From positions 1 to 64,000 of IMG/VR virus record IMGVR_UViG_2854208954_000001: 64,000 nucleotides of DNA; one strand, written 5' to 3'. The position numbers were made by a program, and so were the translations under genes. This document shows, in pieces, positions 16,929-58,871 of this stretch; the stretch's first letter is position 1; every line of letters begins with the position of its first letter. The notes under the pieces were generated by a model that was given only the letters and a program-made list of their open reading frames with translations, had not been told where the DNA came from and made no database searches. The DNA comes from a virus. Taxonomy: Duplodnaviria > Caudoviricetes.

Positions 16929-16959
16929 AAAAAACAATCCCATCGTTCCGACAGGATTG
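16929..16959 (-). terminator. Intrinsic terminator in the leader of 16591-16887
   Basis: Minus strand CAATCC...GGATTG followed by a U6 tract. Confidence 0.7.
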
Positions 16960-16980
16960 CAAAAATCTTTATAACCCTAT

Positions 16981-17040
16981 CGGTCAAGCTTTAGCACCTT
17001 ACCTTTTGGCAGGTTGCTGTGCGGTCAACGAGCTTGTCTC
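16981..17040 (-). ncRNA. c-di-GMP-I-like riboswitch candidate (variant)
   Basis: Minus strand CGCACAGCAACC-UGCC-AAAA-GGUA-AGGUGCUAAAGC resembles GGCAAACC..GAAA..GGGACGCAAAGC; terminator downstream; P3 not convincing. Confidence 0.35.
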
Positions 17041-17102
17041 TCACGCACTCTTTATAGGCTATTTTTAAATTAACACAACAATACAGAATTGTCAAGCAAA
17101 AA

Positions 17103-49279: not shown

Positions 49280-50212
49280 TTACATATTAAGTGTACCAAG
49301 CACCTTACCTACACAACGAACATCATCAAATCCGTGTAAAGGTATAGGCTTATAGGCTGGATTAAGTGAAACAAGCTCCTTTTTTCCTAATTTTTTAATA
49401 TACGATTCACCGTTAAGTACAAAAACCCCGATTTCGCCTTCAAAGACACTTGATGTTTGCTTAACAAGCACGGTTTCGCCGTTTGAAAATTTAGGTTGCA
49501 TACTATCACCTGATATTTTTAACGCAAAATCAGCTGAAGTAGTCATATCATTTCGTGGAACAGTAAGCCATTCAGCTAAAATATCATCGCCAAGCCATGA
49601 GCCAGTACCTGCTGAAACCGGTGTTTCATAGAACGGAATTACAATAGTGCTTTCAGCAACAGGCTTCTGCTCAGGAGTTATAAGATTAGTAATTCTTTTT
49701 AATACGGCAACTTCACCGTTGATAAATCTTTTATTGTGAAAACTATAATCGAACACTTTCCCGAAATCCGTTGCTGTTCGAAAATCATCAACATATCGTT
49801 CAATTCTACCTATCAATTCAGTTATTGCAGAAAACAAGTACTGTTTATCTTTGGCAAATAAAGCATCATTATATTGAATTCTTCTTAAAGAATATAAAAC
49901 AGAATGAATTCTATCCAAACTATGTTCATCAAGCTCGTCACACATCTTCTCAAAATTAAACATAGATAAGCTATGGTCATCACGAATTTCTTCCTTATTT
50001 GTTTCATCTCTGCCAAGTAAAATATCAACACTTACATCAAAATAATCAGCCATTTTTATAAGTGTTTTTATATCTGGTTCTCTTTTTCCTGCCTCATAAA
50101 GAGAAATGGTACTTTCAGAAAGACCGAGAATTTTTCCTAATTCTTTCATTGATAATTTGTGTTCTTTTCGTAATTCTTTTAGTTTAGTCATAAGCTCAGC
50201 CCCTATTGTCAT
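49280..50212 (-). CDS. CI/LexA-like repressor (HTH plus S24 peptidase)
   Basis: HTH_3 N-terminus; VSAG cleavage site, SGDSM serine, YIKKL lysine. Confidence 0.93.
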   Translation of the reverse strand: MTIGAELMTKLKELRKEHKLSMKELGKILGLSESTISLYEAGKREPDIKTLIKMADYFDVSVDILLGRDETNKEEIRDDHSLSMFNFEKMCDELDEHSLDRIHSVLYSLRRIQYNDALFAKDKQYLFSAITELIGRIERYVDDFRTATDFGKVFDYSFHNKRFINGEVAVLKRITNLITPEQKPVAESTIVIPFYETPVSAGTGSWLGDDILAEWLTVPRNDMTTSADFALKISGDSMQPKFSNGETVLVKQTSSVFEGEIGVFVLNGESYIKKLGKKELVSLNPAYKPIPLHGFDDVRCVGKVLGTLNM

Positions 50213-50220
50213 TATTATAA

Positions 50221-50328
50221 ACTTTACTATTAGTAAAGTAAATTAAACTTTGCAAAATGTCAAGAAAAAACTTGACAAATAGTAAATAAAGGCGTATTAT
50301 ATACTTGAAACTTGACAATATGCAAAGT
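50221..50328. promoter_or_regulatory. Four 19-bp operators and a sigmaA promoter of the genetic switch
   Basis: ACTTTACTATTAGTAAAGT (50221), ACTTTGCAAAATGTCAAGA (50247), ACTTGACAAATAGTAAATA (50270), ACTTGACAATATGCAAAGT (50310); TTGACA-17-TATTAT at 50272-50300. Confidence 0.8.
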
Positions 50329-50344
50329 TGAGGACGGTGATTAA

Positions 50345-50572
50345 ATGAAAAAGCGTGTTTATCTCATTGATTTGAGAAATAAAAAGGGGCTAACTCAATT
50401 AGATATATCTAAAAGTATGGGAATATCTGAGAGTTACTACAATCTTATTGAACAGGGACAAAGACAAAAGAATATGAACATCGCTATTTTATATGGTCTT
50501 TCTAAAGCATTGAAGGTATCAGTAAACACACTGGTAGATAAGGAAATAAATTTTGCAAGAAAAGGAGATTGA
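50345..50572 (+). CDS. Cro-like XRE HTH protein
   Basis: LRNKKGLTQLDISKSMGISESYYNLIEQG. Confidence 0.9.
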   Translation: MKKRVYLIDLRNKKGLTQLDISKSMGISESYYNLIEQGQRQKNMNIAILYGLSKALKVSVNTLVDKEINFARKGD

Positions 50573-50778: not shown

Positions 50779-50954
50779 ACCCTCGCTGTAAAGGGTGCGG
50801 ACACCGCAGACCATTAAACCATAGTAACAACAAAGGCTATTCGATTTGTTATTACATTCTTGATACGGGACAGCCACGAGATTGCACAGTTGAAGAATGT
50901 ACGCACTACACAAATAAGGAATGTCACATCAAGGAGGACTTATGGACAGATTAG
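50775..50954 (+). CDS. Cys-rich small protein
   Basis: GTG start overlapping the previous stop; CKGC...C...C..EECTHY. Confidence 0.65.
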   Translation: MNPRCKGCGHRRPLNHSNNKGYSICYYILDTGQPRDCTVEECTHYTNKECHIKEDLWTD

Positions 50955-51127
50955 ATTTATTTGAAAGGAAAAATTTAACTAAAACCGAAAAACTTGAAAA
51001 AATACTCAGAAAATACGGAATAAATTTTGACGATTTAAGACAGCTTAATGAATCTCAGATTAAAGCAGTAGAAACAGACTATTATTCAACTTATGGTGAA
51101 TCAATATCAATAATGTTTGATTTTTAA
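50939..51127 (+). CDS. Hypothetical phage protein
   Basis: AGGAGG RBS, MDRLDLFERK. Confidence 0.65.
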   Translation, partial: LMDRLDLFERKNLTKTEKLEKILRKYGINFDDLRQLNESQIKAVETDYYSTYGESISIMFDF

Positions 51128-51189
51128 GCCGAAACCGCCGCAAGGCGGTCAGCAGGAAATGACCTACCTGCTCTGATGATGGCAGGTCA
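51128..51189 (+). ncRNA. Hammerhead ribozyme, type II, with loop I pseudoknot
   Basis: GCC-GAAAC-CGCC/GGCG-GUC-AGCAGG/CCUGCU-CUGAUGA-U-GGC; loop UGACCU pairs with tail AGGUCA. Confidence 0.88.
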
Positions 51190-51204
51190 AAAGGATGTGA
51201 TTTT

Positions 51205-53163
51205 TTGATTTATCTAACGGCAAAGGAAGTTGCTGGGATAAAAGGTTGCTCTGAACGATATGTAAAAATGCTCATAAACAATGGAAGTCTTCAGGGTGAT
51301 GAAACAATAAACCAAAACAACCGCAAAAAATATTTGATACCTTTAAATGAACTATCCCACTCGGAACAGCTTAAATACTACAAATCGCACGCAATAGCAA
51401 TTCCTGAGGATTTGCTCCCCGAACGCAAGACGGAGCGACCCCACAAGGAATTTGATGAATTTTCGGCGGTACAGCGTGAAGAGATTGCCGAATGGATAAG
51501 GATACTTAATGCTTGGGATGAGTATTGTGCAACATCAAAGTTACAGAAAGTACCTGCAACAGAAAAATTTGTACAACTGCAAAAGGTCGCTAATCCCGAC
51601 CTTAACATATCGAAGGGAATTTTGTACCGGAAAAAAAAGGCTTTAAAAGCCGATGATCTTGCAGGACTGCTTGACAATCGTGGAAGTTGGAAAAAAGGTA
51701 CATCGTCAATTCCTGAAGAAGTGTGGCAATGCTTTTTAAGTTTTTATCTTGATGAGGCACAGCACCCTATACAGGCGTGCTATGAATACACCGAAATGTG
51801 GATTAAGCGAGAAGCTCCACAGCTGTTACCTCTCCCTGCTTATGCATCGTTTTACAGGAAAGTACAAACGGCAATACCTAAGCCTGTTGAAATTATGGGA
51901 CGGCAAGGTATGAAAGCCTTTAGGGACAGGTGTGCTCCGTACATACGCAGGACATACGAAGGAATGGCGTCAAACGAATGGTGGATTGCAGATAACCACA
52001 CATTTGATGTGCAGACAAAGGGAGAAAACGGAAGTATCCACAGGCTTTATCTTACAGCGTTTTTTGATGCTCGTTCGGGTATTTTTACAGGCTGTTATGT
52101 GACCGATGCACCGTCATCGCAGGCTACATTGATAGCTCTACGAAAGGGCATAGTTAAGTACGGCATACCCGAAAACATATATGTAGATAACGGTCGAGAG
52201 TTTCTGACATTCGATGTCGGCGGACTTGGTCATAGATTGAAAAAGAGTCAAAAGGACAAGTTTGCACCGCCGCCTGTTTTTGAACGGCTGGGCATTAAAA
52301 TGACAAATGCTATCGTACGAAATGCGAAGGCAAAGATTATTGAAAGACGATTTCGAGATGTTAAAGACCGACTTTCAAGACTGTTTCCGACTTATACAGG
52401 CGGTAATGTAGTCGAACGACCGGAAAGACTTAAAAAGGTAATCAGGGACACCGACAACATACCCACGGATTATGAATTCACTCAGGCAGTTGAGGACATT
52501 TTAACCTACTATATGAATGAAAAACCATATAGCGGAGCGGTAAGCTCAGACAGCGGTAAAAGCCGAATGCAGGTTTACAGAGAACAACTTAAAGAAAAAC
52601 GAGTCGCCGCAGAACTTGACCTCAACTTGATGTTAATGAGAAGCACAAGAAGTCAGAAAGTCGGCAGGCGTGGAGTACATCTTACTGTTGCAGGCGAGAA
52701 AATTGATTACTACAATGATGACCTTATTTTAAATCATTTTGGAGAATCTGTTTACTGTCGATATGACCCGGAAGATATTTCGGAAGTCAGAATTTATGAC
52801 CTTGATGATAACTACATAATGACCGCTCCAACAGACAATGAAGCAGTCCTTGCCTACGGAGCATCTAAAGATGCAGTTGCTCAGGCACTCCGTAAGGTTA
52901 AGAGCCTTGAAAAACTCACTAAACAGGAACTCAAGGCAAGTCAGATTACAGCATTTGGCAAAGAAACAGCACTCAATCTTGTGCTTGCAACCGCTGAGGA
53001 AAACAAAGCAAATGCCGAGGAAATCAATCCGAAGGTTATATCAGTACACCGTGCCGATGAAACGGCAGAGCAGTTGCCTATGGCAGTTGGTCAGTCGAAT
53101 ATCGTAACGATAGATAAGGCAAAAATGATAAGAAATCTTGAACAGCGACAAAAGGAGGAATAA
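51205..53163 (+). CDS. Mu-type DDE transposase (MuA-like)
   Basis: WWIADNHTFD, YVDNGREF, KIIERRF, Mu C-terminal YCRYDPED. Confidence 0.95.
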   Translation: MIYLTAKEVAGIKGCSERYVKMLINNGSLQGDETINQNNRKKYLIPLNELSHSEQLKYYKSHAIAIPEDLLPERKTERPHKEFDEFSAVQREEIAEWIRILNAWDEYCATSKLQKVPATEKFVQLQKVANPDLNISKGILYRKKKALKADDLAGLLDNRGSWKKGTSSIPEEVWQCFLSFYLDEAQHPIQACYEYTEMWIKREAPQLLPLPAYASFYRKVQTAIPKPVEIMGRQGMKAFRDRCAPYIRRTYEGMASNEWWIADNHTFDVQTKGENGSIHRLYLTAFFDARSGIFTGCYVTDAPSSQATLIALRKGIVKYGIPENIYVDNGREFLTFDVGGLGHRLKKSQKDKFAPPPVFERLGIKMTNAIVRNAKAKIIERRFRDVKDRLSRLFPTYTGGNVVERPERLKKVIRDTDNIPTDYEFTQAVEDILTYYMNEKPYSGAVSSDSGKSRMQVYREQLKEKRVAAELDLNLMLMRSTRSQKVGRRGVHLTVAGEKIDYYNDDLILNHFGESVYCRYDPEDISEVRIYDLDDNYIMTAPTDNEAVLAYGASKDAVAQALRKVKSLEKLTKQELKASQITAFGKETALNLVLATAEENKANAEEINPKVISVHRADETAEQLPMAVGQSNIVTIDKAKMIRNLEQRQKEE

Positions 53164-53166
53164 TAA

Positions 53167-54087
53167 ATGTCGGTAATGTCAGCCAATCCTGAATTACAGG
53201 AGAAATTAAGGAACTTTATCGAAGAGTGCGGCTCACAAACCAAAGCCGCAAAAGCTCTCGGAAAGTCAGCAGCGACTTTGTCAACCTACTTGAACAACCG
53301 TTATAACGGTAATTTAAGTGATTTTGAAAAGTTTTTAACAGAGACTTTTGAAACAAAAGCCGCTGCAGAAAATCTCAAATCAGCTCAGGTGCTTAACAGC
53401 TACAAGCCTACAAGCATAAGCTCAGAGGTTTATGATACAATCCGCTTGTGTCATCTTAAGGGCGGTCTTGCAATTGAGTGTGGCGATGCAGGCATAGGAA
53501 AAACAATGGCTTGTAAAAAGTATGCAGAAGATTATCCGGCTACTGCGATTTATGTGTCTGTAAATCCTTGCTTGGTAACTTTGAGTGCCTTTTTAAAACT
53601 GCTTTGCAGAACACAGAAAATCACCGCAACAGGTCGCAAAGATGAAATGTGGTTAAGACTTGCAGATAGCTTTGAAGGTGAACGCAAGGTACTCATCATT
53701 GATGAGGCACAGCATCTGCCGATTAAAACCATTGAGGCTATCAGAGCTTTTTTTGATAGCAACCCACAGCTTGGTATTTGCCTTGTCGGAAACATTGAAA
53801 CCGTTACAAATACCGGCAAAAGCAAAGAAGCGTTCGCTCAGATTCGTAACCGTACAAAACTTACCGAAGTAAGGCATACATCAGCAATTAAAAACAGCGA
53901 CATTGAGCTGTTGTTTCCTGCCGTTAAGTCCGATGAACGAGCAGTAAGTTTTTTACTTGGCATTGCAAGGTCTGAACAGGGCATCAGAGGAGCAAGCAAT
54001 GTTTTTGGAAATGCCGTTGACAACGGAAACATCACCTATGAAGGCTTAATCGCAATGGCAAAAGCTATGCGTATCAAGGTGTTTTAA
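53167..54087 (+). CDS. MuB-like AAA+ transposition ATPase
   Basis: GDAGIGKT, LIIDEAQHL, N-terminal HTH. Confidence 0.93.
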   Translation: MSVMSANPELQEKLRNFIEECGSQTKAAKALGKSAATLSTYLNNRYNGNLSDFEKFLTETFETKAAAENLKSAQVLNSYKPTSISSEVYDTIRLCHLKGGLAIECGDAGIGKTMACKKYAEDYPATAIYVSVNPCLVTLSAFLKLLCRTQKITATGRKDEMWLRLADSFEGERKVLIIDEAQHLPIKTIEAIRAFFDSNPQLGICLVGNIETVTNTGKSKEAFAQIRNRTKLTEVRHTSAIKNSDIELLFPAVKSDERAVSFLLGIARSEQGIRGASNVFGNAVDNGNITYEGLIAMAKAMRIKVF

Positions 54088-54109
54088 ATAATATTCGGAG
54101 GGATTTTAA

Positions 54110-54346
54110 ATGTCGTTAAGAAAAATCGTGTTACTGCTCGCCGCAGGGTTCAGCACGGGAGTAGTAATGACCGCCGCATTCGGTCAAATGGGTACAAGGA
54201 GCTTTACAGCAGGCGGAGAAATTTGCTTTGTGCCTATGGTGCTCCTGCTTGTATGGGTCGGTTGGATGATCCGTGGCGAAAGCCGAAAGGTAAAAAAGAG
54301 TAAAAGGAGGGGTAACAATGACCGCAGAAGAGTGGAAAAAGGTTGA
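54110..54346 (+). CDS. Small two-TM membrane protein
   Basis: Two hydrophobic segments and a basic tail; GGAGG RBS. Confidence 0.7.
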   Translation: MSLRKIVLLLAAGFSTGVVMTAAFGQMGTRSFTAGGEICFVPMVLLLVWVGWMIRGESRKVKKSKRRGNNDRRRVEKG

Positions 54347-54704
54347 CGAAGCCCTTACATCTGTATGGAGTCCGTATGTACATCTCAAAATTGACGGATA
54401 TAAAGTATCTCTGAACCTCACTCAAAAATCACGATTTCAAAATGTTATTGCAGTTTATATCAACGATGAATTTCGTGGCAAGTGGCTTATGGAGGACTGC
54501 GAAGAACGCAGGAGATTTTGTTGCTGTAAGAGACAGTCGGTAGTTACCGAAAAAGATTGCAAACTTTACGGAGCTCGTAGCAAGAAAGCTAAGCAGGAAC
54601 TCAAAGAGAAGTTTGGCTATGATGTGTATTTACCATATTGGACAAACTTTGAGAAAATGAAAAAACATTTTATTGCTAATAACAAAAGCATTGAACTTTA
54701 TTAA
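54318..54704 (+). CDS. Hypothetical phage protein
   Basis: AGGAGG RBS, operonic. Confidence 0.75.
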   Translation: MTAEEWKKVDEALTSVWSPYVHLKIDGYKVSLNLTQKSRFQNVIAVYINDEFRGKWLMEDCEERRRFCCCKRQSVVTEKDCKLYGARSKKAKQELKEKFGYDVYLPYWTNFEKMKKHFIANNKSIELY

Positions 54705-54721
54705 ATTTCGGAGGGATAAAA

Positions 54722-55018
54722 ATGGAAGATTACACAGTTGAATTTGGAAATGAATTGAGTGGTGCGATAATAGATTCGTTTGCTAAAAAAGCCAAAACCG
54801 CTGTTTGTGAAAAAAAGGTAGTAATAATTTCGGTTGAAAATTCTGACAAAACAACCGACTCTGTTGTAACAGGAAATGCTATCGATATTCTTGGAAAAAT
54901 AGGGTCATTAACAATTGAAGTTATAAAAAAGCTCGAAAAAAATATGGGCAAAACTTTTGCAGATAGAACTTTAGAAGGCTTTATATGTGCAATAAAAGAG
55001 GTTAATGAGCGGAGATAA
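54722..55018 (+). CDS. Hypothetical phage protein
   Basis: GGAGG RBS, operonic. Confidence 0.7.
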   Translation: MEDYTVEFGNELSGAIIDSFAKKAKTAVCEKKVVIISVENSDKTTDSVVTGNAIDILGKIGSLTIEVIKKLEKNMGKTFADRTLEGFICAIKEVNERR

Positions 55019-55026
55019 TCCGCTCA

Positions 55027-55085
55027 CCTTAATGCAACTTCCGCCAACGGGAACGGTCACAAGTCCGTATGAATGCAGAGTGAGG
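55027..55085 (+). ncRNA. Twister ribozyme, P1 type
   Basis: CCU-UAA-UGCA-AC-[UUCCG/CGGGAA]-CGG-UCACAAGU-CCG-UAUGAA-UGCA-GA-GUG-AGG; both pseudoknots pair (CAC/GUG, AC/GU). Confidence 0.85.
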
Positions 55086-55119
55086 ACAACAATACATATT
55101 GAACAGGAGGTCAATTTAT

Positions 55120-55374
55120 ATGAAAACATCAAAGAAAATCTGTAAAAACGGCTCTATTACTCTGCCAAAGCAGATAAGAGGCGAAGCAGGATTGTTTCCG
55201 GGCAATGCTGTTGACATTGAAACAAGTACAGACGGCACTGTTACAATTAAACCGTCTGCTCCCTGTTGTCGCTTTTGCGGTACAGTTGAAAATGTAATCA
55301 TTGCAGATAATGTTATCATCTGCCGCAAATGTGCCGAAAAATTACTTGCAAAGGTGGATAAAACAAATGACTGA
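55120..55374 (+). CDS. AbrB/SpoVT-family DNA-binding protein with C-terminal Zn ribbon
   Basis: GSITLPKQIR...DGTVTIKP; CRFC...CRKC. Confidence 0.88.
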   Translation: MKTSKKICKNGSITLPKQIRGEAGLFPGNAVDIETSTDGTVTIKPSAPCCRFCGTVENVIIADNVIICRKCAEKLLAKVDKTND

Positions 55375-57560: not shown

Positions 57561-58115
57561 ATGGGCAGAAACAACCGCAGAGCTTGCGGAAAAATCGACA
57601 AATTGCCTCCTGACCTCAAGGACACCGTAGATCAGATGCTTGTCAGCGGACAGACCTATCGTGAAATTGTGTCATACCTTGCTGATAACGGCGAACAGCT
57701 GTCACAGGCAGCAGTTAGCCGTTACGCATCAAGGTTTTTGGCGAACGCTCAGCAGTTACGAATCGCACAGGAAAATTTCAGAATGATACTCACCGAAACC
57801 GAGCGTTATCCTGAAATTGACCCTGCAGAGGCTATTTTGAGAATGGCATCACAAAAGGTTTTTGATGCCATATCAAAACTTGACGAAGGACAATTCGATA
57901 AAGTGTCTGCCGAAGACCTTTTAAGACAGGCTACTGCCCTTGCGAGAGCAGTAACATACAAGCGTAAGACCGACACGGATGTCAAGTCAGACAAGCGTCT
58001 TGCCCTCGAGGAAAATCAGAGCCTGCTTTATGACACTATCAAGAAAAGTAACCCACGGCTCTACAACGAGCTTATGGATGAAATCAACAAGCTCAAAGCA
58101 AAGGAGCAAGGATGA
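57561..58115 (+). CDS. DUF3486 / Mu gp27-like protein
   Basis: KIDKLP, TYREIV..L, SQAAVSRY. Confidence 0.85.
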   Translation: MGRNNRRACGKIDKLPPDLKDTVDQMLVSGQTYREIVSYLADNGEQLSQAAVSRYASRFLANAQQLRIAQENFRMILTETERYPEIDPAEAILRMASQKVFDAISKLDEGQFDKVSAEDLLRQATALARAVTYKRKTDTDVKSDKRLALEENQSLLYDTIKKSNPRLYNELMDEINKLKAKEQG

Positions 58116-58621
58116 TGAACATCAAGTGGTATGTTTTGTATGTAAACACAGGACAAGAACATGCTGTTGCGGAACAGCTCCGACATCGTGGTTATGATGC
58201 CATTGTGCCGATTGAAAACAAACTGATACGCTCAAAAGGCAAGTGGATAACCCAACCGCATATACTTTTTGACGGCTATGTTTTCGTTCGTATGGATTAC
58301 GAGTGGTCAAAATATTATGTGTTTAAGGGCATTCCGAACATTATTAGATTGCTCGGAGGTGGAACAAGCCCTATCCCTCTTACGGACACAGAATCAGAGT
58401 TTATTTTGACTTTGAGCGAACTTTTGAAAACTCCCTCGGTGCTTAAATTCACTGATGACGGTTACGAAACAGTCAGCGGATTTTTGGCTGAGAATAAAGA
58501 TAAAATTGTGAAAGTACAGAAACGATACAAGAAAGCAACGGTCAAAATTACCCTTGCAAGTGAGCCGACTGAGCTTACAGTATCGTTTACCGAACAAATG
58601 CCCGAACAGACGGCGGATTGA
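58112..58621 (+). CDS. NusG-paralogue antitermination factor (LoaP/UpxY/RfaH-like)
   Basis: WYVLYVNTGQE, ILFDGYVFV, IIRLLGGG; C-terminal KOW-like VSGFL. Confidence 0.85.
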   Translation: MMNIKWYVLYVNTGQEHAVAEQLRHRGYDAIVPIENKLIRSKGKWITQPHILFDGYVFVRMDYEWSKYYVFKGIPNIIRLLGGGTSPIPLTDTESEFILTLSELLKTPSVLKFTDDGYETVSGFLAENKDKIVKVQKRYKKATVKITLASEPTELTVSFTEQMPEQTAD

Positions 58622-58871
58622 TTCGTCTCCACCCGATGCAACGGCTGACATACGGCGAAGTCACCGATAACCTCAGGTTAGCGGATGGCGAAGCTATACC
58701 CAAGTTAAAAACAGCGGTTTGTTCGTTCATGGATAATCCCTCCGGTAATTAGTTCATATGGCTGACATTAAAATTAACACCACAAACCGCTGTTTTTTAT
58801 ATACATTAAAATGCTTTTAAACACCTTTTAACGGGTGTTTATTTTTATGCAAAAAAGAAAGAAGGTGCAAA

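Follow-up and report, generated by a model that had tools for sequence, protein, structure and literature searches.

A type II hammerhead ribozyme placed directly before the transposase gene in Mu-like prophages of gut Clostridia

The window studied here (the whole stretch of 64,000 nt that was analysed, from IMG/VR record IMGVR_UViG_2854208954_000001) holds a Mu-like transposable prophage of gut Clostridia. Sequence comparison confirmed that its positions 51127-51191 belong to the type II hammerhead class, and this ribozyme stands immediately upstream of the MuA-like transposase gene (muA). Two observations are added to previous knowledge: the near-universal placement of the hammerhead before muA among relatives, and the bracketing of the transposition genes by this hammerhead and a downstream twister ribozyme. 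Type II hammerheads themselves, their pseudoknot, their prophage context and the idea of RNA processing were already published (2011, PMC3088659). In this large phage family of gut Clostridia, conservation of the hammerhead equals that of the transposase behind it; a single ribosome-binding site (RBS) mostly separates the ribozyme from the start codon, and a twister usually accompanies it downstream of the ATPase gene. On balance, we lean towards an active hammerhead acting as a constitutive intercistronic processing site, which would give the transposase mRNA a fixed 5' end. The locus sharpens, without answering it, the question of what purpose hammerhead and twister ribozymes serve in bacteria. 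The succession ribozyme, muA-muB, ribozyme is a concrete and testable unit, present in cultured strains.

Organization of the hammerhead

An Rfam scan for the Hammerhead_II family (RF02276, gathering score 37 bits), proposed as a check in the preliminary description of this DNA, was carried out on the 64-kb window with cmscan. It returned a match at 51127-51191 (+) with a score of 42.5 bits (E 2.5e-5), and our own covariance model R1 scored the same element at 89.1 bits. The Rfam scan revealed no second Hammerhead_II match in the 79.5-kb provirus record containing the window, and 14 control genomes gave none above the cut-off.

All parts of the ribozyme could be read on the + strand. The 5' strand of stem II (GCC, 51128-51130) is followed by core residues G12, A13 and A14 (51131-51133) and by the stem III hairpin (51134-51149), whose 6 bp join 51134-51139 to 51144-51149 under a GCAA loop. 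The Rfam alignment places C17 at C51150, so that the predicted scissile bond C17/A1.1 lies between 51150 and 51151. The stem I hairpin (51151-51172) is made of 6 bp (51151-51156 with 51167-51172) and a 10-nt loop, inside which lies the pseudoknot loop arm UGACCU (51160-51165). Further downstream come the core segment CUGAUGA (51173-51179, also covered by the Rfam match), a U inserted between A9 and G10.1 (51180), the 3' strand of the 3-bp stem II (GGC, 51181-51183, paired with 51128-51130) and the pseudoknot 3' arm AGGUCA (51184-51189), a perfect 6-bp complement of the loop arm. The conserved core is thus complete, with CUGAUGA, GAA, the pair A51134-U51149 (A15.1-U16.1) and C51150 as H17. The three-way junction was the minimum-free-energy fold of the window sequence (RNAfold), and the permutation is that of type II, since loops close stems I and III and stem II is open. 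Direct reading thereby upheld the full core, stems I and III, the pseudoknot and the cleavage-site C51150 of the preliminary description. Its assignment as a genuine type II hammerhead was borne out by the Rfam match and by covariation in relatives.

Conservation and covariation among relatives

Relatives were collected in two ways. The transposase protein used as a query yielded 80 viral contigs (100-53% identity), and an alignment of diverse transposases yielded 80 loci in bacterial genomes (83-41% identity). The combined set comprised 160 loci with MuA-like transposase relatives, from 100% down to 41% identity. Relatives were binned as Ruminococcus, Oscillospiraceae, Lachnospiraceae, Acutalibacter, Anaerotruncus, Enterocloster and, in some cases, Collinsella; cultured carriers were Anaerotruncus colihominis DSM 17241 (L155) and Enterocloster lavalensis KCTC 15153 (L118 and L128).

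A covariance model of 34 distinct hammerhead copies gave 119 and 105 matches in the viral and bacterial sets, respectively, every one of them on the transposase strand. A hammerhead was present on the MuA strand in about 150 of the 156 MuA loci having upstream DNA, down to 41% protein identity, and all viral loci with upstream DNA displayed a hammerhead or hammerhead-like sequence directly 5' of the transposase gene. In nearly all loci, one hammerhead ended 10-30 nt 5' of that gene. Rfam Hammerhead_II scores of the relatives ranged from 39.8 to 56.6 bits.

The 34-sequence alignment displayed clear covariation. Overall, 95.7% of pair cells were paired (23-50% with slid partners), and compensatory changes occurred in 13 of the 23 pairs. 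This was observed in stem I (91.7% paired, 5/8 pairs compensatory), stem II (99%, 1/3), stem III (99%, 4/6) and the pseudoknot (95.6%, 3/6), and none of 500 shuffles reached the observed covariation score. Covariation in all helices that no shuffle matched indicates a selected RNA structure; on this comparative evidence, selection of the hammerhead as an RNA structure can be considered settled and a chance match ruled out. That the element might be a chance match or a decaying relic devoid of present function is, more generally, hardly credible. Its Rfam score is just 5.5 bits over the cut-off and one lineage (L075/L124, see below) shows that decay is possible, but the compensatory changes in all helices and the recurrence at about 150 loci across bacterial families, on one strand and in one place, argue strongly against such a reading.

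It had been feared that the extra U and the short stem II could inactivate the ribozyme. Both turned out to be family traits. The inserted nucleotide after A9 was found in 31 of the 34 distinct relatives and absent in three, suggesting that it is tolerated or preferred, and the middle pair of stem II covaries from C-G to U-A in 10 of the 34 sequences. An extra base at the A9/G10.1 site is also tolerated in a chrysanthemum viroid hammerhead. Fast cleavage is documented for type II hammerheads that have a stem II of one to three pairs together with a 6-bp pseudoknot, and natural core insertions and U4C variants are on record, although near-core insertions can slow hammerheads (PMC3088659).

Departures from the canonical organization were also encountered. 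In L075 and L124 (2900-2990 in each), the hammerhead is decayed, with GAAG replacing the core GAAA and a broken stem I, and still lies in its customary position before muA; the downstream twister is intact in both despite this decay. A U4C core (CCGAUGA) appeared in three separate lineages (L067, L068, L071-L074, L120, L137 and L147), and the L063 hammerhead carries a U16.1C change. In a few loci, 50-146 nt separate the hammerhead from the start codon. Since decayed copies, U4C cores and these longer spacers are tolerated, exact placement is not essential. In the L067 clade, the U4C core is found together with 80 nt of spacer before the start codon, and canonical hammerheads lie farther upstream.

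In many relatives, the successive small early genes are interspersed with two to four type II hammerheads, each lying on the coding strand (multiple copies upstream of MuA were recorded in L089, L120, L113, L131, L140, L153, L036 and L049). The phage of the window has a single one, before muA.

Gene setting in the prophage

The early region of the window prophage contains a promoter-like sequence motif, the near-consensus TTGACA-17-TATTAT at 50272-50300, behind which lies a Cro-like HTH gene (50345-50572). Divergent from the early operon is a repressor gene combining an HTH and an S24 peptidase domain (LexA/CI-like; 49280-50212, -). An S24-type repressor divergent from a near-consensus promoter-like site and a Cro-like gene is unusual in a Mu-type phage.

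Two small ORFs separate the Cro-like gene from the ribozyme. The small early ORF at 50921-51127 (+; alternative start at 50942), which matched no family in Pfam and PHROG searches, ends in a TAA stop (51125-51127) adjoining the first ribozyme base. On the other side, the Shine-Dalgarno sequence AAAGGAUGUGA, a spacer and a TTG start occupy 51190-51207 (+), AAAGGA covering 51190-51195 and the TTG at 51205 opening a 652-aa ORF; the distance from core to start is 25 nt. Since the upstream stop touches its 5' edge and the transposase RBS follows its last base, the ribozyme makes up the entire 77-nt intergenic region.

The 652-aa ORF (51205-53163, +) codes for a MuA-like DDE transposase (Mu-transpos_C 9e-15, HTH_Tnp_Mu_2 6e-12, rve) and is followed by a MuB-like AAA+ ATPase gene (53167-54087, +; AAA_22 4.6e-16). 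Downstream of the latter were found small ORFs, GemA, gp27, a NusG-like antiterminator (58112-58621, phrog_6386), terminase and portal genes. No + strand terminator was found between the promoter-like site and the ribozyme, in agreement with the earlier placement of the ribozyme within the early operon.

Position relative to the transposase start

The contact noted earlier between the pseudoknot arm AGGUCA and the AAAGGA RBS of the TTG-initiated MuA gene proved to be a conserved feature of the family. In 131 of 149 loci, the end of CUGANGA is 22-30 nt from the start codon (mode 25, as in the window), which means that the Shine-Dalgarno sequence begins 0-4 nt past the pseudoknot arm. Most relatives combine a strong Shine-Dalgarno sequence with an ATG start; the clade of the window displays a TTG start and AAGGA. 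Compaction of the phage genomes and common ancestry may account for part of this tight spacing, as twisters in the same phages likewise lie at most 50 nt from the next gene start (91 of 97 cases). In the literature covered, with Roth 2014 and Weinberg 2015 as represented in later summaries, placement directly before the MuA start was not found stated.

The flank 5' of the ribozyme is mosaic, consisting of stop codons of various unrelated ORFs or of a divergent gene with its own promoter. This indicates that the ribozyme travels with the transposase gene and not with the preceding sequence. A minus-strand gene lies directly upstream in many relatives (L005:2892-2921, L059, L115, L122, L130 and others), and in these the 5' edge of the hammerhead borders directly on the extended -10 of that gene (TGGTATAAT, minus strand); the window has no divergent gene directly upstream of the ribozyme. 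A recurring ATTATACCACAAA motif was considered as a promoter just 5' of the ribozyme and rejected, because it reads as the extended -10 of the opposite strand (TGGTATAAT).

A regulated switch was also considered, in which the pseudoknot arm would engage loop I or, alternatively, the region of the start codon, thereby coupling ribozyme folding to transposase translation, and a ligand or protein might modulate cleavage. RNAfold indeed paired AGGUCAAAAG with UUUUUGAUUU across the start codon in the window, and regulation of some phage hammerheads was speculated upon by Perreault et al. (PMC3088659). However, this hairpin is weak (-5.5 kcal/mol, z about -0.4, no better than shuffles) and was encountered only in close relatives of the window (11 of 80 distinct sequences), the family median z being -0.2. 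Moreover, the pseudoknot partners are transcribed first, and the alignment of relatives contains no extra conserved domain able to bind a ligand. A switch is consequently improbable, and a conserved alternative pairing between arm and start codon was rejected as weak and limited to close relatives. The preliminary description had also coupled ribozyme folding to translation; that part found no comparative support.

Downstream twister and bracketing of the transposition genes

A permissive Rfam scan revealed a type P1 twister (RF03160) at 55026-55086 (+), with a predicted cut at 55030/55031; its 52.2 bits (E 2e-9) are below the gathering score of 67.2 bits. It lies between an ORF (54722-55018) and an antitoxin/AbrB-like gene (55120-55374, phrog_4681). 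In 40 relatives, the twister fold was well supported, with 96.6% of cells paired, 14 of 21 pairs compensatory and covariation in both pseudoknots, so that the low score of the window copy is attributable to compensated changes.

Directly 5' of the twister, and outside its Rfam model, lies a 7-bp hairpin (55007-55025, +), whose loop contains the upstream ORF's stop codon. A covarying hairpin of the same kind, ending at most 2 nt from twister P1, was found in 79 of 94 distinct relatives.

A twister was found 2.9-4.2 kb past the MuA start, always on the same strand, in 116 of the 129 loci with enough sequence. In the 13 twister-less loci, Rfam at gathering level gave only upstream hammerheads and one RAGATH-28 RNA (L113). 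In L136, a hammerhead takes the place of the twister, which suggests that cleavage, rather than a particular motif, is what matters. The RAGATH-28 of L113 (6090-6174) lies 3.1 kb after the MuA start, roughly in the usual place of the twister.

Hammerhead and twister might act as a conserved pair that releases the complete transposition module, comprising muA, muB and a few small genes, in the form of a discrete RNA of about 3.9 kb. Its 5'-OH would be backed by a terminal helix and its 2',3'-cyclic phosphate by a terminal hairpin, and an RtcB-type ligase might circularise it. We regard this as improbable. If it were true, the excised RNA would be invisible to decay depending on 5'-phosphate or 3'-OH ends, and transposable phages would possess a transposase message that is defined by ribozymes and is unusually long-lived or circular.

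The stricter version, in which an RtcB-type ligase joins the ends of the excised 3880-nt RNA (51151-55030) to yield a transposase mRNA that is circular or special in some other way, appears very unlikely. RtcB substrates bear 5'-OH and 2',3'-cyclic phosphate ends, which the predicted end chemistry matches, and 116 of 129 loci preserve the hammerhead/twister bracket. Against it, no ligase gene was seen in the prophage module by Pfam/PHROG annotation, and the several ribozymes lying between single genes in many relatives are better suited to plain processing. Furthermore, circular or spliced products of tandem phage hammerheads were sought by Perreault et al., who found none (PMC3088659).

Proposed role as processing site and insulator

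The intercistronic processing that we favour would proceed as follows. During synthesis of the early transcript, stems I-III would form and be locked by the pseudoknot between loop I and the 3' tail, and self-cleavage after C51150 would detach the transposase message from the upstream RNA. Such a separation was already put forward in the preliminary description. Hammerhead cleavage leaves a 2',3'-cyclic phosphate on the C17 side and a 5'-OH on the A1.1 side. The upstream product would thus end with the stem III hairpin and a cyclic phosphate, and the first base of the transposase-ATPase message would be A51151, bearing a 5'-OH and paired in stem I, with a 39-nt stem I/pseudoknot cap abutting the Shine-Dalgarno sequence. 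Leader and 5' end would become independent of context, whatever lies upstream, similarly to the synthetic RiboJ insulator. At the other extremity, downstream of the MuB block, the hairpin-preceded twister would define the 3' end of this message, and the hairpin at 55007-55025 would end the hammerhead-to-twister RNA.

The first nucleotide past the predicted cut is paired in all 34 sequences (pair 30-54), and a cleaved message would consequently open with a blunt helix, followed by the pseudoknot and the RBS. Taken with the end hairpins, the fixed RBS distance and the mosaic upstream sequence, this points to insulation, and probably stabilisation, of the message. Ribozyme and transposase travel together, as would be required of an insulator. 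We infer from sequence that the hammerhead would cleave in vivo and, by extension, that cleavage would act on translation or stability, insulation combined with stabilisation being the favoured outcome. Three type II hammerheads near phage genes do cleave in vivo in Desulfovibrio (PMC8782182), and RiboJ raises the expression of downstream genes (PMC6206723).

The main rival to insulation reverses its outcome: constitutive cleavage would leave a 5'-OH that exposes the transposase message to 5'-to-3' degradation by RNase J, keeping transposase low relative to the upstream early genes. We consider it rather unlikely. 5'-terminal hairpins are classic mRNA stabilisers in Firmicutes, and the new 5' end would be fully base-paired, with no single-stranded overhang; hairpins would in fact stand at both ends of the product. 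A pure decay tag would not need a fixed place beside the RBS, and the strong Shine-Dalgarno sequence and ATG start of most relatives do not fit low expression, which the weak initiation region of the window clade (TTG start, AAGGA) would suit. A Firmicute precedent exists in glmS: according to PMC3328962 (citing Collins 2007), the 5'-OH left by the glmS ribozyme in Bacillus subtilis is a degradation signal for RNase J1, so that hammerhead cleavage could lower rather than protect expression.

Comparison with known systems

The window hammerhead closely resembles the type II hammerheads with a loop I/3'-tail pseudoknot described previously (PMC3088659, RF02276), with which it shares the core, an open and short stem II, the 6-bp pseudoknot and a prophage setting near 'integrase'-type genes. 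It differs from them by the A9/G10.1 insertion, a 3-bp stem II and a near-invariant site before the MuA start. Processing of polycistronic phage RNA by type II hammerheads was already proposed by Perreault et al. in 2011 (PMC3088659).

According to two later papers (PMC10085705, PMC6765202), Mu-like phage genes are those with which hammerhead and twister ribozymes are most strongly associated, for an unknown reason. The association reported by Roth 2014 and Weinberg 2015, as relayed there, concerns both ribozyme classes described here and phages of this type. As relayed, it is statistical, whereas exact places are given here, the hammerhead at the 5' edge of muA and the twister after the muB block; some overlap of these placements with the supplements of Roth 2014 and Weinberg 2015 is possible.

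A hammerhead variant in haloviruses HF1 and HF2 (PMC3088659) offers a comparable arrangement. Here, 13 nt separate the ribozyme from the start codon of an early replication gene at the head of a polycistronic transcript, and a 5' end was mapped near the cleavage site. These are, however, archaeal viruses with a variant high-salt core and another hammerhead architecture, and the gene concerned is a helicase rather than a transposase. The type II hammerheads of Desulfovibrio vulgaris (PMC8782182) likewise lie beside phage-like and HTH genes. Their 5'-OH and cyclic-phosphate ends were detected in vivo. They belong to a different phylum, have been assigned no function and are not reported to be associated with the start codon of a transposase gene.

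RiboJ was engineered from a satellite-RNA hammerhead and an added hairpin. Placed just before the RBS, it strips variable upstream RNA and raises or normalises expression (PMC6206723). By analogy, the window element most plausibly works like this insulator and would be a natural equivalent of synthetic ribozyme insulators; RiboJ was characterised in E. coli (PMC6206723), whereas the window element uses a pseudoknot. The glmS ribozyme (PMC3328962), also located in the 5' leader of a Firmicute mRNA, cleaves itself and leaves a 5'-OH product that decides the fate of the mRNA. It is metabolite-dependent, has another fold and destabilises its message, whereas the window hammerhead has no ligand-binding domain.

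Other structured RNAs were also recorded in the window. The prophage bears a RAGATH motif, in keeping with the association of Roth 2014 and Weinberg 2015 as relayed in PMC10085705 and PMC6765202. This RAGATH-28 RNA (58612-58694, +; 67.1 bits) overlaps the end of the NusG-like gene, upstream of the terminase genes. A SAM riboswitch (16937-17060, -; 61.5 bits) lies outside the Mu-like region, presumably in host DNA.
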